Source: an uncultured Bacteroidales bacterium (lineage in GTDB: Bacteria > Bacteroidota > Bacteroidia > Bacteroidales > UBA4417). From it: a DNA stretch of 64,000 nucleotides. The notes under the pieces are model-generated. The model ran no database searches. It was given only the letters and a program-made list of their open reading frames with translations, and had not been told where the DNA came from. How positions within the stretch are numbered: position 1 is the first letter of the stretch; each line of letters opens with the position of its first letter. A program made the translations under genes and the position numbers. The stretch lies in assembly GCA_903946925.1 (NCBI GenBank), contig CAJAXK010000057.1, positions 1,807 to 65,806 of the forward strand, in the 5' to 3' direction. Below are positions 4,963 to 51,906 of the stretch, piece by piece.

Positions 4963-5161
4963 TGGTTTCAGGGTGATAAAAAGGGTTAATTATTTGCTTG
5001 CTTTTGGATGGAAGGCTTTATTCCCAATTTAACTAATTGGCAATAACGCAATTTTAAAAAACCGCTAAATTATATCATATTGCGATTTATCACAACAGGA
5101 TAAAATAGTGAAGGCCACCAAGAAAAAGGCAGCCTTCAAACATTAGTAGGTTAAAGTCATT

Positions 5162-8536: not shown

Positions 8537-8549
8537 AACGAAATGATTT

Positions 8550-13715: not shown

Positions 13716-13897
13716 ATTGCTGGTTTTTGATTAGGTTTCTGGAAATAAAGTCAAGGTTTGGAAGTAAAGTATGGAGTTGAACGATTCGCACAAGACAAAA
13801 AAGAATGGAACCTGCAGCGATTAAAAAGAATTCAAAAGCTTGAATGGCACAGTGTTCTGAATGGTTCCCCAATAGTATTACAAAATTGAACCGAAGT

Positions 13898-13931
13898 TAA
13901 ACAATCTGCAATAGCCTAATCAGGTCATTTT
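13898..13931 (-). promoter_or_regulatory. conserved intergenic motif, copy 1 (minus-strand reading AAAATGACCTGATTAGGCTATTGCAG...)
   Basis: Near-identical to 14368..14403 and similar to 19656..19680. Lies ~180 nt upstream of the 13715 start codon. Confidence 0.5.
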
Positions 13932-14241
13932 GCGTTGTTGATACGCGCTCTCAGAATAAGGAATTTTTGCACCAATTAAGTTTTTGGAGAAATGTTTGCC
14001 AAGCTGGCAGGGGATTGAAAAAAGCTTATCTGAATATTAGAGTCTGCTTAACTAAAAGAGGGATTGGCAATCAATAAAACACATACAGAAAAAGACCGGT
14101 ATGAACTGTAGGTATAATAAAACCAGGTCTAATGATTTACACAGATCGAAAGGCAATGGCATTGAGGCTGCAAGACTTTGGTTTTTGATGTAGATGTGGT
14201 ATTTTATTCTAAGCCAATCCAGGATAAATAAAAATAAAAAT

Positions 14242-14340
14242 GCTACCTCCAAAAACAAAAAATGATGTCAAAATTTTGGGATCAATATCTTAAAGCAATA
14301 CATAGAAAGCATATCAGAATCTATTGTTTTCGGAGGTAGC
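14242..14340. repeat. 17-bp inverted repeat (GCTACCTCCAAAAACAA / TTGTTTTCGGAGGTAGC) with a 65-nt loop
   Basis: The arms at 14242..14258 and 14324..14340 are reverse complements with one mismatch. The element sits in the 920-bp gap between two giant-protein genes. Confidence 0.6.
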
Positions 14341-14367
14341 CTTTTGTTGTGCAAACATGAGGGAATG

Positions 14368-14403
14368 TAAATAATACTGCAATAGCCTAATCAGGTCATT
14401 TTT
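14368..14403 (-). promoter_or_regulatory. conserved intergenic motif, copy 2
   Basis: taaataatactgcaatagcctaatcaggtcattttt compared with copy 1 taaacaatctgcaatagcctaatcaggtcatttt: two mismatches in 34 nt. Confidence 0.5.
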
Positions 14404-14634
14404 GTGTGCTAAACAAATAAGACCAATCGTAACGGATTTAATGAAATTAACAGACGGGAAACCGAATACGGAAAACGGGGTAAAAGGGAATTTGCAGTAA
14501 ATATTCTGTTAAAAAAGTTTCATTCGTAGATAAGTTGGTTGAATGTTAGCTGTTAAGCATAAAAATCTCAGATGGGAATTCCGGACTCCCGGAAATCTTA
14601 TTCAACACACGAAATGAATAGCCGGAACAGTTGC

Positions 14635-16110
14635 TTATGGCAAAATTACCGTTACAAACGCAGCTGCATTGTTATCCAAAAGTATCATATCCAGGGCATC
14701 CACAATTCCATCGCCATTTATGTCCTCCGAAATATAATCTATGCCAAAAGAGTCTGCATGGTTTTTAACATCCAGCATATCAAGAGCATTTACAACACCA
14801 TCCTGATTGGAATCTCCGCCAAATAGAGCATACTGCCCATCGGCAAGTAGTTTCAAGTTGTTTCCAAAAACCAATTCCGGCTGTGTAAAACTGTAATTTA
14901 TAGTGCTTGCAGCAAAGGAAACAGGCAGTTTGGTGGTTACCGATACACTGTTGCGGTGTTTTACCGTAACATAAAATGAACCGCTATGTGTAGCAGGAAT
15001 ACTAATTGAAGCTGACCCGTTGGTAAGGAGGTTTACATTATTGTCGGTGTAAGCAACAGTATTGTAATTTGAGTTTTGGTGAAGCTCAATTGACAACTTG
15101 TCGGCAATATTACCTGTAAACTGATCCCCCGAACCGCTCTGCGCTTTGTTCATCTGGCCTCCACCTGCATAAAGTCCTTCGAGATAGAGATTTAGGTTCA
15201 GAATTTTGTTAACCAATGCCTGTAAACCAGTAAATGTACCGAAGGTGGTAAGACCGGTAGCGGCAAACTGGTGGAGGTTGGAGTTTACTGGTGTAAAATA
15301 TACAGCAGGCACTGGCAAAACCTGGGCTCCACTGATACTGTTTTCATCGCCTACAACATCGGAATCAACATATTGGAAAACAGCATTGCATTGTGGATTT
15401 GTGATTCCATTCTGTCTTAATTCCCAGTACCTGCTTAAGTAATTTCCTGATGAACCGGGAAAAGCGGAATTTGCGAGTTTCACGCCTAAATAATTTTCTG
15501 AGCTAAAAGTACCTCCAGCAAAAGTTATAGTTACAGGCGTATAATCGGGTGTTCCGGAATTATCGCCCACGGGAAAAGTGAAAGTACCAACACCTGAAAA
15601 ACTTTTTCGCAATTCGCCGGTACCAGTGGCAACAACCATTGCAGAAGAAGATGGCGTTCCGGAAACCGAAGCAGTGCTACCCAGTATAAGGTTATTTGAT
15701 CCAAGCCTGATATGGCCGCCTTGAAGAGAAAGCGCAGTATTTACAGCAGTATTCCCATTGAGGTCGATTCCTGCCGGATTATTCACAACCAATGTGCCAA
15801 TTGTATTTTGGCCGGTAGCACTTTGGGCAGTTGTTCCAGAAAACTCAATTGTACCATTGCCCAAATTTCCGAAAGGATTTTGGTTGACAAGATTTTTCTT
15901 GAGGATAAGGGTGCCATCCACAGTAAGCCCGCCTCCATTTTGAACGGCCAGGTTTTGCAATGAAGTTACAACGGTTCCAGAACTTATTTTGATATTCGTC
16001 CCGCTCAAAACAGTGTTCTGTGAAATTACCGGATCAAACAGAAGGTTTGTGGCAAGGATAACTACTACAACTATTGCCAATTTATCGGGAAACAATTTAA
16101 GAAACAACAT
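14635..16110 (-). CDS. secreted protein with a beta-solenoid-like N-terminal part and the C-terminal LEGLY/dockerin-like module
   Basis: 491-aa ORF with a hydrophobic N-terminus. The C-terminal 190 aa (LNLNLYLEGLY...VTVKHRNSVSV...DSNQDGVVNALD...DINGDGIVDALD...FVTVILP) are homologous to the tails of 1189..4962 and 5162..8536. Confidence 0.8.
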   Translation of the reverse strand: MLFLKLFPDKLAIVVVVILATNLLFDPVISQNTVLSGTNIKISSGTVVTSLQNLAVQNGGGLTVDGTLILKKNLVNQNPFGNLGNGTIEFSGTTAQSATGQNTIGTLVVNNPAGIDLNGNTAVNTALSLQGGHIRLGSNNLILGSTASVSGTPSSSAMVVATGTGELRKSFSGVGTFTFPVGDNSGTPDYTPVTITFAGGTFSSENYLGVKLANSAFPGSSGNYLSRYWELRQNGITNPQCNAVFQYVDSDVVGDENSISGAQVLPVPAVYFTPVNSNLHQFAATGLTTFGTFTGLQALVNKILNLNLYLEGLYAGGGQMNKAQSGSGDQFTGNIADKLSIELHQNSNYNTVAYTDNNVNLLTNGSASISIPATHSGSFYVTVKHRNSVSVTTKLPVSFAASTINYSFTQPELVFGNNLKLLADGQYALFGGDSNQDGVVNALDMLDVKNHADSFGIDYISEDINGDGIVDALDMILLDNNAAAFVTVILP

Positions 16111-39972: not shown

Positions 39973-40698
39973 TTAAGGTAGATCCTTTTTTAATTGTTTT
40001 ACAACCTCTTCTTTTTCAATAAACCCTGTATTTGCCCAAACGAGTGTTTTGTTTTTGTAAATCTGTAAAACGGGTATGGCTTCAATTTTCAGTTCTTTGC
40101 AAAGTGCCCGGCTATCGTCAGCATTAATTCGGACTACCACTACTTTATCGGCCATTTCATTAGAAATTTCATCCAGATAAGGCTTCATTTTTTTGCAGGG
40201 GGCGCACCAATCGGCATAAAAATCTATCAACACTATTTTATCTGTAACAAGCAGGTTATCAAATTGTTGTTTACTAATTCCTGTTGAAGCAGCAGCAACT
40301 TCGGTAGTTTCGGGAAGGTTGGCAGCCCTCCATTTCATCATGCCGCCGTTTAACTCATAAACCTGTTGAAAACCGTTGGATTGCATATACTTAAGGGCGT
40401 ATGTGCTCCTGCTGCCGGTAAGGCAATAAACTAAAATAGGTTTCGATTTGTCGAGCGAGGCGATTTGGTTTACAAATTCGCTAGTGCTTATATCGTAGTT
40501 TAAAGCGTTTTTTATGTGTCCTTGCGAAAATTCCCCAGGAGTCCTAACATCAATAAGAGGAGCATTAGGGAGTTCGGTTATTTTTTTCGAAAACTCGACT
40601 GCCGAAACAGAAGGATTGCCAGGTGTTGATTGGCCATTAGAGCAACTGTTGAATAGGAGTGTGACTATGGCCAAACTGATTGAAAGGTACTTCATCAT
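39973..40698 (-). CDS. lipoprotein with fused rhodanese and thioredoxin domains
   Basis: 241 aa with lipobox LLFNSC. The rhodanese part reads IDVRTPGEFSQGHIKNA...LVYCLTGSRS. The thioredoxin part reads FYADWCAPCKKM. Confidence 0.85.
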   Translation of the reverse strand: MMKYLSISLAIVTLLFNSCSNGQSTPGNPSVSAVEFSKKITELPNAPLIDVRTPGEFSQGHIKNALNYDISTSEFVNQIASLDKSKPILVYCLTGSRSTYALKYMQSNGFQQVYELNGGMMKWRAANLPETTEVAAASTGISKQQFDNLLVTDKIVLIDFYADWCAPCKKMKPYLDEISNEMADKVVVVRINADDSRALCKELKIEAIPVLQIYKNKTLVWANTGFIEKEEVVKQLKKDLP

Positions 40699-40702
40699 TT
40701 TA

Positions 40703-40951
40703 TTATTTTGTTTTTATTTCTTTAAAAGTTTCATCGTCTATAGTAGTTTGTTTTGGTTCTGCTGAACAGTTTCCGCCTACGCAATTTCCTGATGCACAGC
40801 CAAAAGCGAAAAACCCCATGGCGGCAAAATATCCACCGAAGGCAATACCAAACCACTGTTGTACCATAAATGACTGAACGATAACAAATATCCCCATAAT
40901 GAGATAAAATGCCCGTGTAAAAGTCCAGTTTGTTAAAATTCTTTCCTTCAT
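40703..40951 (-). CDS. small membrane protein with a Cys-rich tail (CASGNCVGGNC)
   Basis: 82 aa with two hydrophobic helices. Its start overlaps the upstream stop by 1 nt (TAATG). Confidence 0.55.
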   Translation of the reverse strand: MKERILTNWTFTRAFYLIMGIFVIVQSFMVQQWFGIAFGGYFAAMGFFAFGCASGNCVGGNCSAEPKQTTIDDETFKEIKTK

Positions 40952-41262
40952 TATAATTTGTTTTGCAAGCGGTTAATACTGCCTCCGTTGTAAACTACAG
41001 TATAGCCGTTCGATTTCAGGATATTTTTTGCTGCCGCACTTCTCATCCCTGATTCGCAGTAGGTTATAATAGGTTTGGATTTGCTTTTCAACTTGTGAAG
41101 ATTGCTGCTAAGCTGCTCAACGGCAATATTGATAGAGCCTTTTATGTGCCCACCAGCATATTCCCCTTTGCTGCGGACATCTAAAATAATTGCACCTTCT
41201 TTTACAAGTTGTGCATAGTCGGTTTTTTCCTTAGCGAATAATCGTAATATCGATTCGAACAT
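40951..41262 (-). CDS. single-domain rhodanese-like sulfurtransferase
   Basis: 103 aa. ILDVRSKGEYAGGHIKGSINI and the ITYCESGMRS active-site loop. Confidence 0.85.
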   Translation of the reverse strand: MFESILRLFAKEKTDYAQLVKEGAIILDVRSKGEYAGGHIKGSINIAVEQLSSNLHKLKSKSKPIITYCESGMRSAAAKNILKSNGYTVVYNGGSINRLQNKL

Positions 41263-41566: not shown

Positions 41567-42187
41567 TTACATAAGGGAAATCTTATTTCTGCCTAATTTT
41601 ACCAGACCCACATCTTCCATTTGTTTCAGCAGGCGCGAAACTACCACACGGGCCGTTCCCAACTCATTGGCAAGTTGTTCGTGGGTTACGCTTAAGGTGT
41701 TGGTGTTCATTAGTTCGCATTTCTTTTTTATAAAATTGAATAAGCGTTCATCTAACTTTTTGAATGCAATTGCGTTCACGGCATCCAATAATTCTTCGAA
41801 GCGCTCGTGGTATAAGCGGAAGATATAATCTAACCATTCGGGAAATTCTTTAATGAGCAAGCCAACCTTGTCAATAGGGATAAACAATATTTGTGTTTCT
41901 TCTTCGGCAATGGCTTTTACTTTGCTTGTATCGTGGTGCAAGCCACCTAAAAAGGACATAACACAACTTTCGCCCGCTTTGATATAATATAGCAAGATTT
42001 CCCGGCCCTCTTCGTCGGTCCGCATCACCCTTACGCTTCCCACGGTTACAATTGGGATAGCTTTTATGTAAGCATTTTCATTGAGTATAACTTCCCCTTC
42101 TTTAAATGTTTTTGGAAACCCGGAGTCAATCAGCCGCTTGATTATCAGCGGAGAGGATTTGAATTCAATGATCTCGTTCAGTTTCAT
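41567..42187 (-). CDS. Crp/Fnr family transcriptional regulator
   Basis: 206 aa with a cNMP-binding-like barrel and the C-terminal HTH THEQLANELGTARVVVSRLLKQMEDVGLV. Confidence 0.88.
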   Translation of the reverse strand: MKLNEIIEFKSSPLIIKRLIDSGFPKTFKEGEVILNENAYIKAIPIVTVGSVRVMRTDEEGREILLYYIKAGESCVMSFLGGLHHDTSKVKAIAEEETQILFIPIDKVGLLIKEFPEWLDYIFRLYHERFEELLDAVNAIAFKKLDERLFNFIKKKCELMNTNTLSVTHEQLANELGTARVVVSRLLKQMEDVGLVKLGRNKISLM

Positions 42188-42490: not shown

Positions 42491-43048
42491 TTAAACGAGT
42501 TGGATTGAAAACACTTTCACATACAATGGACCTTCGCGGCGGAGTATGCTTTCGTAGAGTATGATTTCGGAAACACTTTCTTCCTGAATTTCAACCGTAT
42601 TGTATTTTCCGATGATTTGTTGAAAAAGCTGTTTGTCCTTCAGTTCTTTTATACGGCCAATGGTTAAATGAGGGACGAAATTCTGGCGGTCGCGCGGGTA
42701 TCCGCATGTTACGAGACGGGCAAACAGATTATTGGCCAACATTTCCAGTTCTTGGTTTTTTTCGATTCCAAACCACACCACTTTTGGGTCGTAACGGCTC
42801 CCGAAAATGCCGGTATTTGAAATATTAAGTGAAAAGGGCTTCGATTTTTTCAGCGATTCTTCCGTCGCCAACTTAATAGCAGGGATTAAATTTTCATCTG
42901 TTTCACCAAAAAATTTCAGTGTAAGGTGCATGTTTTCGGGTTCCACCCATTTGATACGCTCATGGCGTAGTGAAGAGGAAATTTCGTTGAATAGGCTGAT
43001 ATACCGGGCAGTGGGGTGGATTTTAATGGCTGCGAACAAACGTTTCAT
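42491..43048 (-). CDS. thpR: RNA 2',3'-cyclic phosphodiesterase (2H family, LigT/ThpR)
   Basis: 185 aa with two H-x-T/S-x motifs: HLTLKFFG and HLTIGR. Confidence 0.88.
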   Translation of the reverse strand: MKRLFAAIKIHPTARYISLFNEISSSLRHERIKWVEPENMHLTLKFFGETDENLIPAIKLATEESLKKSKPFSLNISNTGIFGSRYDPKVVWFGIEKNQELEMLANNLFARLVTCGYPRDRQNFVPHLTIGRIKELKDKQLFQQIIGKYNTVEIQEESVSEIILYESILRREGPLYVKVFSIQLV

Positions 43049-43543: not shown

Positions 43544-44245
43544 TTAAACAGAGATTACTTTATGTCCCTGTTCGTCAATGATGATTTTTTTTCCATCTAA
43601 CTGTGTAACCAGTGCAAAGCCATTGTAAAAAGGTTCAACTGCTAAATATCTTTGTTGGTAAATTTCGTTTCCGCTTATATCAATGTGATGCCAACCATAT
43701 TTATCCAAAGCAGTTGCAAAGTTTTTGTGAAAAACCCCAAGATCCAAAAAAGCTTTATTATTTAGAAAACTCCCCTTTGTGTCAATATGCCTGTATAGTC
43801 CGTCGTCTGCTTTTGCACAGGCATTACCATCTTTGAAATCGCCACAATAGATAAAACTGCCTGTGTATATTCTTTTTCCATCAAGGTCAATATGAAAATA
43901 CTTGTTGTCGTTGCCCCTTACTGAACATAGGTTTTCCTGATAATTGCCTGTCCAATTATATGATTGGTCATAAGCCTTTAAGCCTTTGTCTGTCAAGTGA
44001 AACCAATTGTCGGCTTTAACAACCGTAGCCCTGCTGCAATAATAGCCAAAAGTCCGAGTGAACCTTTCATCGTAAAGTTGATTACCAATACTGTTAATGT
44101 GATATGAACCGCTTTCATCTTTTACAGGAGCAAGTCCTGGCGAATGAAATTTTAAAACTTCAATAAACACACTTCCGAAAAGCGGTTGTTCATTAAATAG
44201 AAAATGTGTCTTGTCTGCTGATACTTTTATGTCTTGCCAATTCAT
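43544..44245 (-). CDS. WG-containing repeat protein
   Basis: 233 aa. Repeats are of the type YHINSIGNQLYDERF, YFHIDLDGKRIYTGSF, LYRHIDTKGSFLNNKAF and GWHHIDISGNEIYQQRY. A 4-nt overlap (ATGA) joins it to the upstream gene. Confidence 0.65.
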   Translation of the reverse strand: MNWQDIKVSADKTHFLFNEQPLFGSVFIEVLKFHSPGLAPVKDESGSYHINSIGNQLYDERFTRTFGYYCSRATVVKADNWFHLTDKGLKAYDQSYNWTGNYQENLCSVRGNDNKYFHIDLDGKRIYTGSFIYCGDFKDGNACAKADDGLYRHIDTKGSFLNNKAFLDLGVFHKNFATALDKYGWHHIDISGNEIYQQRYLAVEPFYNGFALVTQLDGKKIIIDEQGHKVISV

Positions 44246-45207
44246 TTTTTGAAAATTAGAATGGTTTGTAATTGATTTAACTTTTTGTCTTCTTGAAAAT
44301 TAAAACCGAATTCTTCACATAGTTTAATGTATTCAGTGGAACTGCGCTCAAAACTTTGGCACATTACAGCCATATTCAATGACAATAACCATAATTTGAT
44401 ATTAATTTTATCTGTGCAATTCTCAATAACATATAAAGTTCCATTAGAAGGTAATGCATGGAAGCAATTTTTAAGAATAAGTTTCGCTTTTTTATTATTC
44501 CAGTCGTGCAAAACTCTGGAAAGAATTATCGCTTCTGAACACTTGGGGATTCCCTCAAAGAAATTCCCACCTATTCTTTCAATAGTTTTGTATGAAACTT
44601 GTTTAATTACTTTATCTAAATCGAAAAGTACGCATCTTGCAGTATGATTTTTTTCTTTAATCAGATTTAACGCAGCACCATAGCCACCGCCAACGTCCAT
44701 TATTGACTGGTGAATGCTAAAATCGATAATGTTAGGAAGTTCTTTATAATCATCTATTGCATATTCTGACATTGCTTTATGATAATTCTTTAGTTTTTCA
44801 GGATTATCATTCAAATACTCGAAGTATGTTTTTTGGTAAATCTGTTCAAATGAGCTTTTACCTGATTGAATCGAACATTTAAGATGTTGCCATGCTATAA
44901 GGTGTTCGCCAGACCAATTTAAGCAAGCATAATACAGCCCCCCTTTATTTTCTTTTCTTAGGAGATTTCCCCTTTCTGTAAGCGTGTAATTATTATTTCC
45001 CAATTCGTTTATATAGTTATTTTCTGTTAGAAATTCGAGCAAATTCAACAAACTTTTTAAATCCCACTTGTTATTTTGTAATAATTTATCCAAACTGTTT
45101 TGCCCTTCAAATATTTTATCAAATAATTGTAACTGGCAAGCCGCATTTACAGCCAGGTATTTCCAATGTTCTGTGAACAAAGATTTTAGTTCTTTTTTCG
45201 CTTCCAT
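44242..45207 (-). CDS. class I SAM-dependent O-methyltransferase (COMT/Methyltransf_2 type with N-terminal dimerisation domain)
   Basis: 321 aa. Motif I is MDVGGGYGAALNL; also FDLDKVI and ILSRVLHDWNNKKAKLILKNCFHALPSNGTLYVIE. Confidence 0.85.
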   Translation of the reverse strand: MEAKKELKSLFTEHWKYLAVNAACQLQLFDKIFEGQNSLDKLLQNNKWDLKSLLNLLEFLTENNYINELGNNNYTLTERGNLLRKENKGGLYYACLNWSGEHLIAWQHLKCSIQSGKSSFEQIYQKTYFEYLNDNPEKLKNYHKAMSEYAIDDYKELPNIIDFSIHQSIMDVGGGYGAALNLIKEKNHTARCVLFDLDKVIKQVSYKTIERIGGNFFEGIPKCSEAIILSRVLHDWNNKKAKLILKNCFHALPSNGTLYVIENCTDKINIKLWLLSLNMAVMCQSFERSSTEYIKLCEEFGFNFQEDKKLNQLQTILIFKK

Positions 45208-45209
45208 GA

Positions 45210-46643
45210 TTAATCGAGTAATTTGTTTTTAAGAGATTCTATTTGACTCGCTGAAAGCCCACACCATTGCAAATAATTTTCAATCCCTCCTTTTTCCTTG
45301 ACGATGTCAAGAACCAAATTCAAACGATAAAGCTTTACGTCTACTTCACTTACCAGGTAATCTACTTGAATATCAGTGAGTGGTGTATCGGCAAGCAAAT
45401 GAAGCAGTGAAATAAAAATTCCTGTTCTGTCTTTTCCAGCAAAGCAATGAATGGCTACAGAACCGTTGCGCTCATTTAATATGGCTTCCATTGCAGTTTT
45501 GATTTTGTCCTTACACCCAATTGCAAAAAAGCGGTATGCGATTTCTTCATTTGTCCCTTGATGATGATTTTGTTTGAACCAATCGGGTTGGTTCCAGGGA
45601 TCGAGTTGTGCTTTTACATAGTTGAACTTAGATAGCGTTCGATCTAAATACGGCATTTCTTTAATTTCTTTTTCTGCTCTTAAATCAATTATTGTTTTTA
45701 TTCTTTTTTCTCTCAGCAATTTTTCAAAGTGAGATTCATCTTGAAAAAGAGTCAATGTTGCAGTTCTATATATTTTTCCGCTTTTTATTCTAGGATTGTG
45801 CGTGCAGATGTCTCGAAAGTTCCAAAAATAATCTCTGTCAAAAATCCATTCGCAAAACTGTTTTAGTTCAATAAACTTTTCATAGCTCACCAATGGTTGA
45901 ATTGCAATATAAAAGAAATCTAGTAATTTTCTTTTTTGCTGATTGGCTTCAGGCAAAAAAAGGGTTCCTTTTAAACCATAAAAAGAGTCTTGTTCTTCCT
46001 TGTTAATAACATTTGGAATAAAATATTTAGGCAAATAATGAAATTTGGTGTGTCCTTTTGAAGAATGTTTCAACTGAATGGCAACTTGTAAAGCAATGTT
46101 GTAGAAAAAATAAAATTGGTAACCATCACTTCTGCGGTGCATTCCCGAGCAACTTTCAAATTCGTATATGAATTTGTCAATCAATTCAGCAATTCCTTTT
46201 TCATTTTGGTGAGGAGTTTTATTTAGGTTATAATCTCTAACATGTTGATAGAGATAAGTTCCAATATTATACTTTGCTGGTCGTTTTTCAAATAGAATAG
46301 TGTCGGCTATGTTTGATATTTCAGAACTCAAATAATTTCTGTTAATCTCTGAAATGTGATTGCAAACAGCGAATTCTATTTTTGGTTGTGCTTTGAAATA
46401 AGCCACAACTTTATTTCGCAATGCAACCTCACGAATATCAACAAGTTCTTGCTGAAATTCATTTCGCAACGCTTCATTCAGAAATTTGGATTCAAATTCA
46501 CCATCAACCAAAAGTTGAATATCAATGTCTGAATTCGGCGTTGCCTCATTTCTTCCAAATGAACCATACAGAAGTGCAACATCTATACCTTTCACTTGCG
46601 GAAATAATTTTTGGAGCAGTACTATTGTTTGTAATTGTTTCAT
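45210..46643 (-). CDS. fusion protein: Pol-beta-superfamily (GlnD/GlnE-like) nucleotidyltransferase + tyrosine-phosphatase-family domain
   Basis: 477 aa. The N-terminal LLYGSFGRNEATPNSDIDIQLLV matches the G-S/G-x-G-R-x-E-x3-5-SDIDL NTase signature. The C-terminal NFRDI...YRTATL...IIDLRAEKE and AIHCFAGKDRTGIF fit the CX5R loop of the Y_phosphatase3 pattern. Confidence 0.8.
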   Translation of the reverse strand: MKQLQTIVLLQKLFPQVKGIDVALLYGSFGRNEATPNSDIDIQLLVDGEFESKFLNEALRNEFQQELVDIREVALRNKVVAYFKAQPKIEFAVCNHISEINRNYLSSEISNIADTILFEKRPAKYNIGTYLYQHVRDYNLNKTPHQNEKGIAELIDKFIYEFESCSGMHRRSDGYQFYFFYNIALQVAIQLKHSSKGHTKFHYLPKYFIPNVINKEEQDSFYGLKGTLFLPEANQQKRKLLDFFYIAIQPLVSYEKFIELKQFCEWIFDRDYFWNFRDICTHNPRIKSGKIYRTATLTLFQDESHFEKLLREKRIKTIIDLRAEKEIKEMPYLDRTLSKFNYVKAQLDPWNQPDWFKQNHHQGTNEEIAYRFFAIGCKDKIKTAMEAILNERNGSVAIHCFAGKDRTGIFISLLHLLADTPLTDIQVDYLVSEVDVKLYRLNLVLDIVKEKGGIENYLQWCGLSASQIESLKNKLLD

Positions 46644-48997
46644 AAAGATATTGGTTTGCGCATGTTACATGTTTTACATATTGGTTTCATTTTATATTTG
46701 CTTACCAGTTCCATATAAACAAAACCTTTTAAAACATCTTCAATCGATGTGGTTGAAATGTTTCCAAAGTCGCCTAAAGACTTTCTCAAATTGTCAGGCG
46801 CACAACATGGCGAGATATTCCCTGTTGCTGAAACCCAAAGTTCTTTTGTCAGAAAAGGGCACTCATATTCTTCGGGAAGTTCTTTAGTTTCATTGTCGTG
46901 AAGCGGAATAATGTTTTCTAAGATTACTTTTTCGCCGTTTGGTTTTCTAAATTTTTCCTGTGCATCAATAGCTTGCTTTACAAATACATTCCATTGCATT
47001 ACACTCTCTTGATTTGCTTTCATTGAGAGGTTTTTGATTTCCTCAAAATGTGCCCAAAGCTGATGTCCTTTTACCCTGTCAACACCAAGTGAAGCAGCCA
47101 ATTTTATAATCTCAGCCAACTCGTGCATGTTGTTTTGCATAAAAGTTAATTGAAATGTAACTCTACAGAAATATCCTGTTTTGGCAAAATGCTCATCACG
47201 GAATTTTATGAATGACTTAACATTTTCGATGGCTTGGTTAAAGTCAATTCCAATCATCACTTTTTGGGCTGTTTCTTCTGTTGCTCCGTTCCAGCTTATT
47301 TTTATATCTATAGTGTTTGGCACTATCAACTTTGCCCATTCTTGTACAGTTTTTTTAGGAAATGTCCCATTGGTAGTGAGATTGATTTTAATTTTTGTTT
47401 GCTCAGCCAATTCAAAAATTTTGTCAAACTCTTTGTATAGTAAGGGTTCTCCCATTGTGGAAGGTATGATTTCCTTTACTCCCAATTTTTCTGCCTGGTG
47501 AAAAACCTCTTCCACATCTGCAAATTTCATCCGTCTGCGTTTTACTCCGGTTTCCTTGAAAAGAGATGGAATAAATTTGCTGTATGGGCTGTGCTCCTCA
47601 CACATCACACATTTGAGGTTACAATCTTCCGGATTGGTATCAATGGTAATACGCCAGAGATTTTTTGAAGGGATAAATTGACGATATATTTTCTCCAATT
47701 CTTTGCAATGGTTATGAATATCAGGCACATTGCCATCTTCTGAATACAAATATCCTCTTTGCCCCAACCCTTTCATCAGGTTAGGGTTTTCAACAGCAAA
47801 CCTTAACTGCTCAGCCAAAGAATAGATGTTTCGATGTTCAAATAATAATCCGTTCAAATGGTGTTGAACATATTCTTTCATTCCTCCAAAATCAGCTGTT
47901 ATTACAGGCACTCTGCACGACTGTGCTTCATGAATTACCAATGGAGAGTTTTCGCCCCAAATGGAAGGAACCACTATGCAATCTACTTGTGAAAAAACTT
48001 CATCTGCTAAATTCTTGTTAATGTATTCCCCCTTGAACTGTATTGATAAATTGTATTCTCCGGCTATTTCCATCAGTGCTATAGTGCTTTGTTGAGCTTT
48101 TGATCCCCAAATTAAAAGTTCTGCATCACCCTCTAACTTTTTAAAAGCTTCAATCAATAAGTTGATTCCTTTGGATGGGACATGAGTGCCAATATATCCG
48201 AAGGTAAAATGTTTATTTCTTTTTCTGTTATAGGTTGGTGTCAAGTAATGGGTAGGGAAACCATAATCTAAATAGGTCAGTTTATTTTCTGGAACGTTAA
48301 ATTCTGCAATAAATCGATTTCTTAAATAGTGCGAAGGAGCAATGAACGCATCTACTTTATTTATTACTGACCGGGTTTCATCCATTCTGGCATCAATCCA
48401 ATTCTCCCAATATTGCTGATCATTTAATACATCTTTTCTACAAGGAATTTTATGCTCAAATTCATAGGAAAGCATATTATCAAAAGATGATGTATAACCG
48501 GAATGCAAAGGTTTATAACAAATACTTGCACATTTGCAGTTTTCCTGTTTATCACATAATTGCCAGACCTTTTCTCCATCCGAATTACGCTGTAAGAACT
48601 GGCCCCGTGGGCACATCAACCAAAAGTCATGAAGTGTAAATACAACCGGAATCTGCTTTCTGTTTAACTCATCAATAATACCAGTTGAAAGATGATTCAA
48701 ATGGCCAATATGGGCTATATCTGGTTTAATATTATCGAGTAGTTCAGCAAATTGACTGTCAATTTCCCTATGTCTGAAACCATCTTTGCCTTGGGCCATA
48801 TTCACAAAAAACAGAGTTAAATTCTCTTTTAATTTTTGTGTTCTGATTGTAAAATCAGGGGCATAAGGGTTCTCTTCGCGAGTAAAAACAAAAACTTCAT
48901 TTTCTTTTGATAATTCTTCGCAAATGGATTGGGTGTAAACTTCCGAACCAGCATTGTAGTTTGGTGGATAGCCGTGAATGATTTTGAGAATACGCAT
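46640..48997 (-). CDS. fusion protein: GT4-type glycosyltransferase + radical SAM/SPASM domain
   Basis: 785 aa. The N-terminal half (MRILKIIHGYPPNYNAGSEVY...; ENSPLVIHEAQSCRVPVITADFGGMKEYV) is GT-B / Glycos_transf_1-like. The C-terminal half has CNLKCVMC (CxxxCxxC), GEPLL, and a SPASM-like tail CPFLTKELWVSATGNISPCCAP...CKTCNM. A 4-nt overlap joins it to the downstream gene. Confidence 0.85.
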   Translation of the reverse strand: MRILKIIHGYPPNYNAGSEVYTQSICEELSKENEVFVFTREENPYAPDFTIRTQKLKENLTLFFVNMAQGKDGFRHREIDSQFAELLDNIKPDIAHIGHLNHLSTGIIDELNRKQIPVVFTLHDFWLMCPRGQFLQRNSDGEKVWQLCDKQENCKCASICYKPLHSGYTSSFDNMLSYEFEHKIPCRKDVLNDQQYWENWIDARMDETRSVINKVDAFIAPSHYLRNRFIAEFNVPENKLTYLDYGFPTHYLTPTYNRKRNKHFTFGYIGTHVPSKGINLLIEAFKKLEGDAELLIWGSKAQQSTIALMEIAGEYNLSIQFKGEYINKNLADEVFSQVDCIVVPSIWGENSPLVIHEAQSCRVPVITADFGGMKEYVQHHLNGLLFEHRNIYSLAEQLRFAVENPNLMKGLGQRGYLYSEDGNVPDIHNHCKELEKIYRQFIPSKNLWRITIDTNPEDCNLKCVMCEEHSPYSKFIPSLFKETGVKRRRMKFADVEEVFHQAEKLGVKEIIPSTMGEPLLYKEFDKIFELAEQTKIKINLTTNGTFPKKTVQEWAKLIVPNTIDIKISWNGATEETAQKVMIGIDFNQAIENVKSFIKFRDEHFAKTGYFCRVTFQLTFMQNNMHELAEIIKLAASLGVDRVKGHQLWAHFEEIKNLSMKANQESVMQWNVFVKQAIDAQEKFRKPNGEKVILENIIPLHDNETKELPEEYECPFLTKELWVSATGNISPCCAPDNLRKSLGDFGNISTTSIEDVLKGFVYMELVSKYKMKPICKTCNMRKPISL

Positions 48998-49026
48998 TTA
49001 GTTATGAATTATTTGTTTTTGGAAAG

Positions 49027-49048
49027 GGTTGGGGAGCGATCCCCAACC
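49027..49048 (-). promoter_or_regulatory. perfect 9-bp stem / 4-nt loop hairpin between the micro-ORF and the GT-rSAM gene
   Basis: ggttgggga-gcga-tccccaacc. It lies 2 nt after the micro-ORF stop and 29 nt before the 48997 start. No U-tract follows on the coding strand. Confidence 0.7.
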
Positions 49049-49050
49049 AA

Positions 49051-49146
49051 TTACTTCTTAGGTTTCGGAGGATTATTACCTCTACCACCGCCGGATGGTT
49101 TGCCAGTTGTGCTTGGAGCGTTTACTGGTTTCGTTGTTTTAGACAT
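49051..49146 (-). CDS. micro-ORF, 31 aa (candidate precursor peptide)
   Basis: Hand translation gives MSKTTKPVNAPSTTGKPSGGGRGNNPPKPKK*. The ATG is 3 nt after the stop of the preceding micro-ORF. It lies directly upstream of the rSAM/SPASM gene. Confidence 0.4.
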   Translation of the reverse strand: MSKTTKPVNAPSTTGKPSGGGRGNNPPKPKK

Positions 49147-49228: not shown

Positions 49229-49531
49229 CTAATTAAGTATTTGGATAAAATAATTCTGTTTTTTTATAATATGAGTAAGTACATTTGAGAAAAATGCTCT
49301 TATAAGTTTACCGTTCTTCACGGTTAGACACAAGTTGGGCAGTTCCATGTTTTCGGGAAACGAAATTTTATTTCGTTTCATCCATTCATATCTTGCAATA
49401 ATGACAATGCTTTTTTGAAGATGTTTCTTCTTTGCAGAAGCCAATGCAACTTTGATTGCTTTTTGGTCGGGTGAAAACTTAACAGCTTTACATTCATTGT
49501 TTGAACTAATTGAAAATTTTGTTGTGTCCAT
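49229..49531 (-). CDS. hypothetical 100-aa protein (paralogue of 49639..49941)
   Basis: ORF-track entry. Its C-terminal NLCLTVKNGKLIRAFF...YFIQILN resembles ETCLVLIVKKNLILRGYW...HFQILYK in the neighbour. No family recognised. Confidence 0.55.
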   Translation of the reverse strand: MDTTKFSISSNNECKAVKFSPDQKAIKVALASAKKKHLQKSIVIIARYEWMKRNKISFPENMELPNLCLTVKNGKLIRAFFSNVLTHIIKKQNYFIQILN

Positions 49532-49638: not shown

Positions 49639-49941
49639 TCATTTGTACAAGATTTGAAAGTGAGCATTCTTTTCCTTGCTGAACAAATAGCTGATATGGT
49701 CGCACCAGTAGCCTCTTAGAATCAGATTCTTCTTAACGATAAGGACTAGACAAGTTTCATCATCCCTGGCCACCCCTTTCCTTTTCAAGAAGGAAGGCAA
49801 CACAAGCACAATATCTTTTTCGCATTCGGAGCATTCTACATATGGTAGGATTTTGTTGAGTATTTGGTCGTCAATACTTCTATCCCATTGGCTAAACATA
49901 AAGTGGGTTGTTTTCCTAAACTCTAAAATCTGTTTATTCAT
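49639..49941 (-). CDS. hypothetical 100-aa protein, first gene of the divergent operon
   Basis: ORF-track entry. The TTHFMFSQWDRSIDDQILNKIL segment is loosely reminiscent of DUF4258/RelE-like small proteins; I am not confident in that resemblance. Confidence 0.55.
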   Translation of the reverse strand: MNKQILEFRKTTHFMFSQWDRSIDDQILNKILPYVECSECEKDIVLVLPSFLKRKGVARDDETCLVLIVKKNLILRGYWCDHISYLFSKEKNAHFQILYK

Positions 49942-49965: not shown

Positions 49966-49983
49966 AGACATAAAGTGTGCCAA
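49966..49983 (-). promoter_or_regulatory. candidate sigma54 (-24/-12) promoter, strong -24 and weak -12
   Basis: The minus strand reads TTGGCAC-ACTTT-ATGTC. The -24 TTGGCAC is perfect, but -12 is ATGT instead of TTGC. It lies ~25 nt upstream of the 49941 ATG, facing away from the sigma54-activator gene. Confidence 0.35.
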
Positions 49984-50079: not shown

Positions 50080-51906
50080 ATGAAAAATATTTATATAACC
50101 TGGCATTATACAACCCACGGTGTTGCATACTTAAAGCACATTCTTAGCCAATTCTACCTAATTCGAGAACTTCCAATTGAAATTAATTTTAGTCAGTTAG
50201 AGCAAGAAGAACTTAATTCAACTTTTAACAGTCCTAAATCAACAGGATTTCTTTTTGACGAGATAATTTATCTAACTGCACCACAAAAGGCATTTGATGG
50301 AGTTTCAAGCAGGAGATTCAGTCATAGAACAACTGTTTTGGATGATCCTGAAATTAAAAAAAGTAAATTGGGAATAGTATATCATGAACTTATCGAAATT
50401 TATCCAGAACATAAGCTGTCTGAGGAAATCAGTTTTATAGAAAACAACTATCCCGACCTGCTATCAGAGTACAAAGAATTGGTGTGGCGTAACATTCAGC
50501 ATTATCCAGTTGAAGAACAGATTAAGTGGTTAACAGAATATTCAAACTTTAAAAATGTATATTCTAATAAATTTAAGGTTGTTGAATTAAAGATTGATGA
50601 CTTTAGAAATGAAAAGCAAATTTCAGATGTAATAAGTAGATGGATTAGACATTACTTTTTCAGGCAAAAGAATTGTCGGCCAATAATTAATGTTTCACTT
50701 GGAAGTAATGAAACGCAAGTGGTATGGCATATACTGGCAGAAGCAGGCCAGTTGCCTGACACTACAAGATTTATTAAAACATATGATGATAAAAATGATA
50801 AGCCTGAAAAACGATTTAAGCAATTTTCAATTCAAGAAATTGCAACTAATCTAATTTCTACGATTGGAGCTGAGTTCAAGATATACGATGACACAAAATC
50901 ACCTTCTCGGGCTTTGGCTAATAAAAAAATGGAAACCTATCTTAAATTGGGTTTTTCGATTTTGCTAATTGGGGAAAGAGGAATCGGAAAATCAAAAATT
51001 GCTAGCGAAGCAAAGCAAAAGTTTGATCCCCAAAGTCCTTTCGTAGAAGCAAATTGCGCCTCATTTGATGAAGATAGTAAAGCAGAATCGGAGTTGTTTG
51101 GGTATGAAAAAGGAGCATTTACCGGAGCTAACGCTGTAAAAATAGGTCTTTTAGAAGCAGCAAATGGCGGTATTCTGTTTCTTGATGAAATTCATCATTT
51201 ATCAAAGCTTGTTCAGGCTAAACTAATGAAGGCATTGCAGACTGATAAGAAAAACAAAATGGCCATCCGGAGAATAGGCAGTAATAAAGAGATCAAAGTT
51301 GAATGCCGATTAATTTTTGCAACTAATAAAAGTATTGTTGAATTAAGAAATGAATTACTGCCCGATTTTTACGATAGAATTGTACAGTATGTTGTAAACA
51401 TCCCACCGATAAGAAACAATATTAAAGATAGGCCGTCTGATTGGGAAAAAGTTTGGAGTGATTTGAATTTAAAAGGGATGGATGGAAAATGGCTACGAGA
51501 ACCTCCTGATGATGAAAAATTGAATGAATGGCTATTAACTCTCCCATTGTATGGGAATTACAGAGATTTGCAAAAAATAGCCATCAGTTATCATGCTTTT
51601 AATCATTTTGACATGGAAACAAAGGGTATGTTGATTGAGGCCAATGCTTTCCAGTATGCAAAAAATGAATTTGAAAAATATCACTCACTTGTAGTCCAAC
51701 CTGAAAATGAGAAATTCAATTTCAATAACAGCCAAACAACAAAAGAAATGTTAGCTGACTATTTATTTGAATTGCAAAATTGGGCTGTGTTGAATTATAA
51801 ATCACGAAAAGCTGCAATAGAACATTTTCGGTTATTGGGAGATACAGTTGCTCCTGAAACCTTTAATAACTGGAAGAATAGGGATTCTGTAAAAAAGAAA
51901 AAATAG
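50080..51906 (+). CDS. sigma54-dependent transcriptional activator with an RtcR-like (CARF-like) N-terminal domain
   Basis: 608 aa. The AAA+ core has LLIGERGIGKS (Walker A), FGYEKGAFTGA (the GAFTGA sigma54-contact loop) and GGILFLDEIHHL (Walker B). The ~290-aa N-domain contains INVSLGSNETQVVWHILAEAGQLP, which parallels IHITTGTHVAQICWFLLAEARYLP of E. coli RtcR as I recall it. Confidence 0.75.
   Translation: MKNIYITWHYTTHGVAYLKHILSQFYLIRELPIEINFSQLEQEELNSTFNSPKSTGFLFDEIIYLTAPQKAFDGVSSRRFSHRTTVLDDPEIKKSKLGIVYHELIEIYPEHKLSEEISFIENNYPDLLSEYKELVWRNIQHYPVEEQIKWLTEYSNFKNVYSNKFKVVELKIDDFRNEKQISDVISRWIRHYFFRQKNCRPIINVSLGSNETQVVWHILAEAGQLPDTTRFIKTYDDKNDKPEKRFKQFSIQEIATNLISTIGAEFKIYDDTKSPSRALANKKMETYLKLGFSILLIGERGIGKSKIASEAKQKFDPQSPFVEANCASFDEDSKAESELFGYEKGAFTGANAVKIGLLEAANGGILFLDEIHHLSKLVQAKLMKALQTDKKNKMAIRRIGSNKEIKVECRLIFATNKSIVELRNELLPDFYDRIVQYVVNIPPIRNNIKDRPSDWEKVWSDLNLKGMDGKWLREPPDDEKLNEWLLTLPLYGNYRDLQKIAISYHAFNHFDMETKGMLIEANAFQYAKNEFEKYHSLVVQPENEKFNFNNSQTTKEMLADYLFELQNWAVLNYKSRKAAIEHFRLLGDTVAPETFNNWKNRDSVKKKK

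Follow-up and report, generated by a model that had tools for sequence, protein, structure and literature searches.

What does a bacterium gain from joining a glycosyltransferase and a radical S-adenosylmethionine (SAM) enzyme in one polypeptide? The question is raised by an open reading frame (ORF) on the minus strand of a 64,000-nucleotide stretch of DNA from an uncultured Bacteroidales bacterium (contig CAJAXK010000057.1, positions 1,807 to 65,806), which is referred to here as the window. The ORF, at positions 46640..48997 of the window, encodes a genuine bifunctional enzyme (hereafter GT-rSAM) composed of a GT4-type glycosyltransferase followed by a radical SAM domain. The gene belongs to a compact cassette whose composition, regulation and natural gene fusions are described below. 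The reading preferred for this cassette, one for which the evidence from sequence is about evenly balanced, is that it would specify a cytoplasmic, inducible route to a radical-tailored glycoside, with a probable tie to defence.

The fused reading frame and its distribution

The 785-residue frame is intact from its ATG at position 48997 to its stop at position 46640 on the minus strand, and the plus-strand frame over the same interval is riddled with stops. The original prediction, made from the letters of the window alone, had placed a single polypeptide here, and the intact frame bears it out. All of the motifs that it quoted were located, namely ENSPLVIHEAQSCRVPVITADFGGMKEY at residues 349-376, CNLKCVMC at 459-466, GEPLL at 516-520, SPCCAP at 729-734 and CKTCNM at 774-779. 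The domain architecture was checked with Pfam hidden Markov models (HMMs), which assign four domains, each above its gathering score: Glyco_transf_4 (PF13439; residues 17-131; E 8e-15, 55.6 bits against a cut-off of 28.5), Glycos_transf_1 (PF00534; residues 258-416; E 1e-27, 96.8 bits against 26.4), Radical_SAM (PF04055; residues 459-599; E 1e-14, 55.3 bits against 29.5) and SPASM (residues 713-778; E 1e-8, 35.6 bits). The protein also matched 53 NCBIfam families, none of them near its cut-off, so that no named family applies; the best of these scores, 66 bits where 380 are required, was obtained with a tungsten-cofactor radical SAM maturase.

A frameshift or misassembly at about 47.6-47.7 kb might have joined two genes artificially, and two observations could be taken in that sense: the glycosyltransferase and radical SAM halves are separate genes in some lineages, and one long-read assembly (L089; related loci are numbered with the prefix L) contains broken pieces. 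However, contigs of four independent metagenome runs from lake water reproduce the interval 46600-49100 with no substitutions and no indels. A search of 5.8 billion proteins gave full-length sequences for every one of the best 120 homologues, at 754-788 residues and 67-100% identity, the frame is continuous in hundreds of full-length homologues, and the linker between the two halves is conserved. Together with the 328 related stretches described next, the identical runs and the full-length homologues rule out an artificial fusion, the probability of which is close to nil.

In the GTDB collection of one genome per species, a relative of the enzyme is encoded in 328 stretches. Most are from Bacteroidota, and others are from Planctomycetota (Ca. 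Uabimicrobium), Spirochaetota, Myxococcota and Ignavibacteria; the loci closest to that of the window are from Chitinophagaceae or 'uncultured Bacteroidetes'. These closest loci, a type IX secretion sorting domain encoded in the window and the lake-water origin of the metagenome runs mark the window as DNA of a freshwater Bacteroidota. Among cultured bacteria, the cassette is carried by Flavobacterium lacus CGMCC 1.12504, Algibacter pectinivorans DSM 25730, Winogradskyella ludwigii HL116 and Capnocytophaga granulosa ATCC 51502. The original prediction had called for a survey of how widespread the fusion is and regarded the protein as an unusual enzymology target. The survey, with a relative in 328 GTDB species, shows that the fusion is not rare and forms a large family, labelled simply 'glycosyltransferase' in databases. 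The mean column identity of the enzyme is ~80% across Bacteroidota. Metatranscriptomes contain a few exact 151-nucleotide pieces within the gene, too sparse for statements on co-transcription or induction.

The glycosyltransferase half

The GT4 domain, of the GT-B, retaining type, occupies residues 1 to ~440 (window 47678..48997, minus strand) and was assigned from Pfam, sequence motifs and Foldseek. Its two Rossmann-like domains both match family HMMs, and the E-x7-E pair characteristic of GT4, formed by E349 and E357 at the start of ENSPLVIHEAQSCRVPVITADFGGMKEY, is kept together with the Lys/Gly-rich NDP-binding loop of the C-terminal domain. Conservation was scored on a diverse set of 20 members, correctly paired and sharing 35-69% identity with the window protein. 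In all 20, E349-x7-E357, K276, G270, G277, H8-G9, G17-S18-E19 and H123-D124 are invariant. Because the catalytic motifs are invariant across this diverse set, the domain is very probably active, and it would probably catalyze retaining glycosyl transfer from a nucleoside diphosphate (NDP)-sugar.

The top 19 Foldseek matches of the glycosyltransferase half are GT-B enzymes, mostly of GT4. The highest are MshA (3c4q, with a target-normalised TM-score of 0.72), GlgM, methylmannose-polysaccharide mannosyltransferase, sucrose-phosphate synthase (SPS; 6kih) and BshA, and SPS is also the best sequence match in the Protein Data Bank (PDB). The acceptors of MshA, GlgM, SPS and BshA are small, and three of the four are phosphorylated. 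In NCBIfam, the cut-offs of MshA and BshA are missed by a wide margin (for example, 37 versus 462 bits).

A family-specific insertion in the N-terminal domain contributes four cysteines in the pattern C129-x18-C148-x7-C156-x3-C160 (window 48518..48613, minus strand). The set is near-invariant and is kept even when the glycosyltransferase is encoded by a separate gene. AlphaFold2 (AF2) cannot place the insertion; its predicted local distance difference test (pLDDT) score is below 50 at residues 124-194. The four cysteines could be a zinc site or an additional Fe-S site. To our knowledge, such an insertion is not a feature of characterised GT4 enzymes such as MshA and SPS.

The radical SAM half and its truncated SPASM tail

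Pfam places the radical SAM core and a truncated, Twitch-like SPASM region at residues ~445-785 (window 46640..47665, minus strand). The CX3CX2C motif is formed by C459, C463 and C466. Among 21 diverse members C459 and C466 never vary, and C463 is kept in 20 (95%); the GGE-like SAM-binding motif M515-G516-E517-P518-L519 is invariant, as are many core residues. The CX3CX2C and MGEPL motifs and the PF04055 core match are the features of the radical SAM superfamily. Five further cysteines are invariant (C713, C731, C732, C774 and C777), and C611 is variable.

The SPASM domain is defined by seven cysteines, arranged as CX9-15GX4C-gap-CX2CX5CX3C-gap-C, and houses two auxiliary clusters, whereas Twitch is a truncated SPASM with a single auxiliary cluster (PMC6231123). 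In the window protein the tail reads C713-x12-G726-x4-C731, a gap, and C774-x2-C777, and the polypeptide stops eight residues later, at residue 785, with no cysteine between C777 and the stop. Only the opening four cysteines in this definition are thus present, and the tail is read as Twitch-like because the second half of the motif (CX2CX5CX3C...C) is missing. The Pfam SPASM HMM still matches because the first half of the motif is shared with Twitch. The pattern fits Twitch at four positions, to which the invariant C732 is added, and would probably hold one auxiliary cluster in a Twitch-like arrangement. The description of this half as radical SAM/SPASM in the original prediction therefore stands as far as the Radical_SAM and SPASM matches go, whereas a full SPASM domain is excluded by the presence of four cysteines out of seven.

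As a single sequence, the radical SAM half yielded only marginal matches in the PDB. The corresponding profile reached anSME and SuiB at E ~4e-6, with weak matches to QueE and BlsE. Against the profile of the viperin pVip it scores 33 bits, which reflects the generic radical SAM core only and does not place it among the viperins. Judged by these comparisons, the radical SAM half belongs to no characterised subfamily.

Composition of the cassette

All ORFs of 80 related loci were clustered together with those of the window, and the counts of cassette members are taken from this set. The cassette is sharply bounded, and the content beyond its edges is unique to each locus. The full GT-rSAM ORF is present in 77 of the 80 loci. 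WG-repeat protein F, of 233 residues, is present in 74, the other six being truncated contigs. The phosphatase is of non-homologous types that are swapped at the same position: it occurs as a nucleotidyltransferase-Y_phosphatase3 fusion (35 loci), as His_Phos_1 (29 + 3 loci) or as a stand-alone Y_phosphatase3 (5 loci). A Methyltransf_2 O-methyltransferase (34 of the 80 loci) and a carbamoyltransferase (4 of the 80) are optional members, and an NAD-dependent epimerase/dehydratase is added in the operons of L030, L080, L102, L134 and L138. An exporter is usually absent, which suggests that the product would act inside the cell.

Three partners follow the GT-rSAM gene on the minus strand of the window. 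The first (45210..46643) is a 477-residue protein in which Pfam identifies a Pol-beta nucleotidyltransferase and, fused to it, a Y_phosphatase3 cysteine phosphatase; it carries the motifs GS-x10-DID and HCFAGKDRTG, and the PDB entries nearest to its phosphatase domain are PtpB and the inositol-pyrophosphate phosphatases PFA-DSP1 and Siw14. The second (44242..45207) is a class I SAM-dependent O-methyltransferase of 321 residues (Methyltransf_2 with a dimerisation domain; Pfam E 1e-35), the nearest solved relatives of which, COMT, Plu4890-5, CalO6 and DnrK, are exclusively small-molecule O-methyltransferases. The third (43544..44245) is WG-repeat protein F, the near-universal partner of GT-rSAM. 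The stop of GT-rSAM overlaps the start of the nucleotidyltransferase-phosphatase gene by 4 nucleotides, the O-methyltransferase and F genes overlap by 4 nucleotides, and the two middle genes are 2 nucleotides apart. With its genes overlapping or nearly touching, the whole window cassette fits a single operon.

The conservation of protein F equals that of the enzyme: its mean column identity is 77%, and each repeat has approximately one invariant histidine. Its AF2 model is a confident small beta-propeller (pLDDT 94). No sequence match to F was found in the PDB, and Foldseek retrieved generic propellers only (BamB and designed proteins, with TM-scores of 0.5-0.6 and RMSD values of 5-9 Å).

Because the partners of the enzyme are a phosphatase, a small-molecule O-methyltransferase, a carbamoyltransferase and NDP-sugar enzymes, a sugar-derived small molecule is proposed as the object of the cassette, and a small-molecule sugar pathway is considered likely.

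Two further observations were made on cassette variants. In L061 (11470-13193), genes for an AbiEii toxin and a DUF6088 protein, likely a type IV toxin-antitoxin pair, are inserted between the phosphatase and F. In L164-L166 (IMG/VR; GC content 33%), a fused GT-rSAM is part of an extended cluster that is classed as viral and looks like a bacterial natural-product cluster; its additional genes encode a MobA-like NTP-transferase, an epimerase/dehydratase, an F-O-methyltransferase-like fusion, a PhyH dioxygenase, a pyridoxal phosphate-dependent lyase and an ATP-binding cassette (ABC) exporter.

Natural fusions, fissions and eukaryotic megaproteins

In at least 15 divergent loci from several phyla (L067, L073, L085, L100, L102, L110, L112, L114-L117, L120, L125, L127 and L134), the glycosyltransferase (411-466 residues) and the radical SAM protein (319-362 residues) are encoded by separate adjacent genes, always in this order. 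Random frameshifts are excluded for these loci because the boundary is consistent across independent assemblies. Protein F is fused to the O-methyltransferase in L080 and L102 (Polyangium and Thiomargarita) and apparently, judged by size, in L127 (Planctomycetota). It is fused to His_Phos_1 in L129, L131, L134 and L138 (Enterobacterales, Myxococcales, another Pseudomonadota genome and Colwellia). Since F is thus joined to two different tailoring enzymes, a role in substrate handling is proposed for it, in which the propeller would be a substrate-binding or catalytic partner within the same pathway.

The radical SAM half alone was searched against 1.84 billion cluster representatives and retrieved 91 clusters at E <= 1e-30. 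Three architectures are found among them: the fused form (~750-790 residues), a stand-alone form (~320-350 residues) and giant proteins (860-2458 residues), and those giant proteins that carry a source name are eukaryotic. The largest, P0253 of Chromera velia (2458 residues), has a database entry titled simply 'Radical SAM core domain-containing protein' and shows the order F, O-methyltransferase, a UTP-glucose-1-phosphate uridylyltransferase (UGPase)-like domain with a GHMP kinase, GT4 and radical SAM; P0251 (2277 residues) has the same domain order. In P0264 of the choanoflagellate Stephanoeca diplocostata (2280 residues), a region with an RHG motif is followed by a carbamoyltransferase, GT4, radical SAM, F and a GT2-like tail. 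P0246 and P0248 (1318 and 1455 residues) consist of a GHMP kinase, GT4 and radical SAM, and P0263 of Cyanophora paradoxa (899 residues) of GT4 and radical SAM.

These assignments were obtained in different ways. The GHMP kinase of P0251 was identified by Pfam and by a PDB search, which returned galactokinase-type kinases; its UGPase-like region was identified by the PDB search, with UTP-glucose-1-phosphate uridylyltransferases at ~2e-11. The UGPase-like and GHMP domains of P0253 were inferred from motifs in its aligned sequence. For P0264, the labels His-phosphatase-like and GT2-like come from motifs read by eye, the PDB match being non-significant (E 0.17). No function is assigned to the eukaryotic fusion proteins in the databases consulted. 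The GHMP domain of P0251 (residues ~1050-1375) matches 9ulx ('AbGHMP') at E 3e-44, far better than galactokinases, and the substrate of AbGHMP might be a hint to the sugar of the pathway.

On account of its sharp boundaries, gene fusions and gene fissions, the cassette is regarded as one pathway. This pathway would start from an activated sugar, probably a uridine diphosphate (UDP)-sugar, and is predicted to handle a small phosphorylated intermediate. The original prediction had proposed coupled radical chemistry and glycosyl transfer on one substrate within a peptide- or protein-modifying frame. Of this, the working together of the two domains is supported by their adjacency when split and by the eukaryotic fusions, whereas the frame does not fit the evidence that follows.

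Small ORFs upstream of the enzyme

Directly upstream of GT-rSAM lies a 31-residue ORF, MSKTTKPVNAPSTTGKPSGGGRGNNPPKPKK (family S1; 49051..49146, minus strand), the product of which is basic and hydrophilic. Its C-terminal motif, G-x-GNNPPKPKK, recurs right before GT-rSAM in L002, L009, L024, L047 and L058. Two other families of small ORFs, S2 and S3, hold the same position in 22 further loci; those of S2 contain DKNQGNRGKQLNPNQKGKR, and those of S3 are SMP/LEA-like (Pfam SMP, 22.6 bits against a cut-off of 22). A G+C-rich hairpin (49027..49048, minus strand) with a 9-bp stem, six of whose pairs are GC, lies between the small ORF and the start of GT-rSAM. It was scored in a terminator-like scan on the plus strand; the palindromic stem folds equally in the transcript, and no T-run was scored there.

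Two 100-residue proteins are encoded further upstream on the minus strand. The first operon gene (49639..49941) belongs to cluster c6, found in 20 loci. The next (49229..49531) belongs to cluster c7, has no Pfam match and is the first operon gene in 10 other loci. A comparison of c6 with c7 by hhalign was not significant (E 0.044), and one of c6 with the DUF4258-like cluster c17 gave a weak match (E 3e-4).

The small ORFs raise the question of whether the enzyme is the maturase of a peptide that is ribosomally synthesized and then post-translationally modified (RiPP), with the radical SAM half modifying the 31-residue peptide (49146..49051) and the GT4 half glycosylating it. The SPASM match, the position of SuiB and anSME as the nearest solved radical SAM enzymes, the hairpin after the small ORF in the window, and the occurrence of three Ser/Thr/Asn/Lys-rich families only directly upstream of the gene (~28 of 80 loci) are all compatible with such a maturase. 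However, the N-terminus of the enzyme is a glycosyltransferase, and neither a RiPP recognition element nor any other peptide-binding domain was detected by Pfam. The small ORFs come from unrelated families that do not amount to a conserved adjacent precursor. They are absent in most loci and wherever a 100-residue gene abuts GT-rSAM (gap of -1 to +1 nucleotides), and they lack cysteine and mostly also tryptophan. The cassette contains neither a protease nor an exporter. Its partners are a small-molecule O-methyltransferase, a phosphatase, a carbamoyltransferase, NDP-sugar enzymes and a sugar kinase, and what is found in the eukaryotic megaproteins is a module for sugar activation rather than a peptide. 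A RiPP maturase is very unlikely on this evidence. The framing of the enzyme as a modifier of peptides or proteins does not fit this context, as no recognition element and no conserved precursor accompany it and its partners point to a sugar-derived small molecule.

The sigma-54 activator and a putative promoter

A 608-residue sigma-54 enhancer-binding protein is encoded divergently from the cassette (50080..51906, plus strand). It has the RtcR-type architecture of a CARF-like N-terminal region, an AAA+ domain with the GAFTGA motif and a C-terminal region. PADLOC assigns it to RtcR_PspF1--CARF_AAA_HTH (E 1e-76) and Pfam to Sigma54_activat (E 5e-39), and its AAA+ domain matches the structures of NtrC1 and PspF; no model matched the first ~175 residues. 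With 145.5 bits against a cut-off of 650 it falls outside the NCBIfam RtcR equivalog, and neither rtcB nor rtcA is present in the operon. A divergent sigma-54 activator is found upstream in 38 of the 80 loci, window included. In approximately half of the activator-bearing loci it is a short form of 305-350 residues without the N-terminal sensor region.

A search seeded with an alignment of the long activators retrieved relatives, down to 29-45% identity, from Bacteroidota, Thiomargarita, Planctomycetota, Enterobacterales, Myxococcales and Colwellia. Among the loci with enough upstream sequence, ~33 contain the glycosyltransferase, the radical SAM protein and F, 4-5 do not, and one contains pVip only. 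Because most assessable relatives of the activator face these three components, the regulator is considered dedicated to the cassette, and the RtcR-like activator would probably switch it on.

In the intergenic region, we infer a sigma-54 promoter at 49967..49982 on the minus strand, in which a TGGCAC -24 element (49982..49977) is followed by ACTTTATGTC, ~26 nucleotides before the first ATG. A TGGCA[CT] element is present in the activator-operon intergenic region of ~15 of 32 loci, mostly 25-45 nucleotides before the first gene. The canonical TGGCAC-N5-TTGCA sequence scores modestly above shuffled controls, with a good -24 and a poor -12 element. In L005, L006, L008, L012, L014 and L023, a palindrome of the form TG[GT]CAA-N4-TT[GA]CCA is located ~85 nucleotides before the first operon gene; in these short-activator loci it may be the binding site of the activator (upstream activating sequence).

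RtcR is a regulator of RNA repair genes and a sensor of damaged tRNA (PMC7790460). A regulator of this type might therefore signal that the cassette modifies a macromolecule, either in RNA-end repair or protection (Pnkp/Hen1-like, with glycosylation) or by glycosylating a protein or an envelope glycan against phage. The window does hold the combination of a nucleotidyltransferase, a phosphatase and a methyltransferase, the Pfam GT4-conflict model matches (34 bits against a cut-off of 26), and an RNA 2',3'-cyclic phosphodiesterase, ThpR/LigT, is encoded 0.5 kb downstream (42491..43048, minus strand; TIGR02258, 143 bits where 66 are required). The phosphodiesterase was rejected as a member of the cassette, as it stands beside none of the 80 related loci. 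Other features also argue against a macromolecular substrate: the nucleotidyltransferase and the O-methyltransferase are optional, the type of phosphatase is freely swapped, and the O-methyltransferase is of the small-molecule COMT-like family, not of an RNA methyltransferase family. The cassette lacks an RNA ligase, an RNA-binding domain, and membrane or lipid-carrier enzymes, and the sugar-kinase and UDP-sugar modules and the ABC exporter of relatives fit a metabolite. Macromolecule modification is thus judged quite improbable.

Viperins and a possible defence context

The viperin pVip, too, belongs to the radical SAM enzymes; it produces a small antiviral molecule in the cell and is known from both bacteria and eukaryotes. 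True pVips (PADLOC E 1e-62 to 1e-90; 208-300 bits) are present in the operon at seven of the related loci, namely L046 (Flavobacterium lacus), L052, L067 (Uabimicrobium), L085, L100, L125 and L127 (Planctomycetota). In L067 the pVip shares the operon with the cassette, and in the other six it shares both the regulator and the operon. A nucleotide kinase adjoins the viperin in L067 and L125. In L082 (Raineya), the same activator and a c6-like gene stand ahead of pVip and the VakA kinase, and GT-rSAM is absent. A random sample of 124 non-redundant flanking ORFs, taken without a matched control, includes matches to type I restriction-modification, GajA, HEC-06 and SngC, and is consistent with occasional residence of the cassette in defence islands.

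The CARF-type activator and the recurrent co-operonic viperin together suggest that the pathway would be induced by infection or RNA damage. A role of the cassette in defence is advanced tentatively, at somewhat less than an even chance.

The same cassette could serve to make an intracellular stress protectant, a methylated or carbamoylated glycoside resembling a compatible solute and under sigma-54 control, with the viperins as incidental passengers of a shared stress promoter. Sucrose, mannosylfructose and GlcNAc-inositol are classically made by a GT4 'synthase' paired with a phosphatase, and the best structural matches of the glycosyltransferase half include SPS and MshA. The usual lack of an exporter, the S3 small ORFs that reach the threshold of the SMP/LEA-like Pfam model (22.6 versus 22 bits) and the free-living aquatic or marine habit of many hosts fit a protectant as well. 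However, radical SAM chemistry is not required in any known compatible-solute pathway, and the dedicated regulator is RtcR/CARF-like rather than osmosensing. Moreover, pVip and a kinase occur repeatedly inside the operon in unrelated phyla, and the distribution is patchy, with sharp boundaries and with some loci beside defence genes. Synthesis of a protectant is considered unlikely.

Other genes of the window

The minus strand of 1189..16110 encodes very large secreted proteins with cohesin, dockerin, Kelch/beta-helix, GEVED and type IX secretion sorting (Por_Secre_tail) domains, a cellulosome-like pairing of cohesin and dockerin in a Bacteroidota genome. Downstream of a Crp-family regulator (41567..42187), a rhodanese-thioredoxin fusion and a stand-alone rhodanese are encoded on the minus strand (39973..40698 and 40951..41262); the two may form a module for sulfur transfer or redox reactions that has nothing to do with the cassette.

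Discussion

The preferred reading, an inducible pathway for a radical-tailored glycoside, can be set out as a sequence of steps. The GT4 domain would transfer the sugar of an NDP-sugar, probably a UDP-sugar, to an acceptor that is probably phosphorylated. The radical SAM domain, in which one [4Fe-4S] cluster would cleave SAM and a single auxiliary cluster of the Twitch type is probable, would then oxidise, dehydrate, epimerise or rearrange this same sugar-containing intermediate by radical chemistry. The phosphatase would strip the phosphate from the intermediate, and the O-methyltransferase or carbamoyltransferase would cap a hydroxyl group. The divergent activator would switch the operon on, and the likeliest role of the pathway is a chemical defence that infection or damage induces. 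As to the product, a glycosyl-cyclitol, a glycosyl-hydroxy-acid or a nucleoside-type product can be named as leads only.

Several known systems resemble parts of the cassette. One is the BtrM/BtrN pair (NeoM/NeoN-type) of the 2-deoxystreptamine aminoglycosides, in which a GT4 enzyme and a Twitch-type radical SAM enzyme likewise serve a small-molecule pathway based on a sugar or cyclitol. Aminoglycoside pathways also use carbamoyl- and O-methyl-transfer as tailoring steps. In the cassette, by contrast, the two enzymes are one polypeptide, cyclitol synthase and aminotransferases are missing, a CARF/sigma-54 activator is present and an exporter usually is not. BtrN itself is a dehydrogenase of the Twitch type whose auxiliary cluster is fully Cys-ligated (PMC6231123), and the CX12GX4C...CX2C pattern of GT-rSAM, with nothing after it, would fit one such four-cysteine auxiliary site. 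BtrN had been expected among the PDB sequence and profile matches and was absent from them; the analogy is one of cysteine pattern only.

MshA/MshA2 (GlcNAc-inositol-phosphate) and SPS with its phosphatase are pairs of a GT4 'synthase' and a phosphatase. MshA and SPS are the best structural matches of the glycosyltransferase half, and a phosphatase stands beside the glycosyltransferase in nearly all loci of the cassette, as in these pairs; however, the MshA and SPS pathways have no radical SAM step. The SPASM maturases (anSME, SuiB and PqqE) share the Pfam SPASM match and include the best profile and fold matches of the radical SAM half, whereas GT-rSAM is without the CX2CX5CX3C...C half of the motif, the recognition element and a conserved peptide substrate. 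Compared with pVip, the radical SAM half scores 33 rather than 208-300 bits and has a Twitch/SPASM tail and a fused glycosyltransferase, and antiviral activity is only proposed here. The activator resembles that of the RtcR-RtcBA regulon in its RtcR-type architecture and its divergence from the presumed operon; unlike that regulon, the operon has neither RtcB nor RtcA, and approximately half of the activator-bearing loci have a short, sensor-less form. Judged by sequence, the enzyme has the features of GT4 and radical SAM enzymes and is a member of none of the BtrM/BtrN, MshA/SPS, SPASM maturase and viperin families.

A number of points weigh against the preferred reading. The sequence names no acceptor, donor or product, and the logic of a phosphatase combined with a GT4 enzyme fits the synthesis of an ordinary stress protectant (compatible solute) too. 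The radical SAM structures closest in sequence and fold, SuiB and anSME, modify peptides or proteins, and the small ORFs, found ahead of the gene in about one-third of the loci, occur only at that position. The full-length AF2 model is moderate (pLDDT 73; predicted template modelling score 0.55) and gives no domain arrangement. With regard to induction, an adjacent activator is not seen in approximately half of the first 80 loci, and the -12 GC of the putative sigma-54 promoter is poorly conserved. With regard to defence, pVip is found in ~7 of roughly 100 distinct cassettes, and PADLOC has no models for F, the O-methyltransferase, c6, c7 or GT-rSAM, the last giving a generic radical SAM core match only. 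Finally, the cassette, a fusion of GT4 with radical SAM of this kind, and a viperin under a bacterial enhancer-binding protein were not found in CC-licensed PMC papers or bioRxiv, and an account in a subscription journal is possible; in PMC7159879, glycosyltransferase and radical SAM domains appear in unrelated systems.

A bolder form of the preferred reading is that the cassette is a second viperin-like chemical immunity, in which infection or RNA damage would be sensed through the CARF-type activator and a radical-tailored, methylated or carbamoylated glycoside or a nucleoside-like antimetabolite would block phage replication, and which would persist in protists (Chromera, a choanoflagellate and Cyanophora) in the form of giant fused enzymes. 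This form is doubtful, if possible.

If the preferred reading is true, glycosyl transfer and radical SAM chemistry would be coupled on one compact conserved chain, and gene linkage and natural fusions would define the parts list of an uncharacterised pathway. An RtcR-like activator that also drives a viperin would link the sensing of RNA damage or nucleotides to inducible chemical defence. The fused forms in protists of three eukaryotic supergroups would suggest a function that is ancient or was repeatedly transferred, and, should the viperin-like form prove true, the cassette would be another immune module common to bacteria and eukaryotes.

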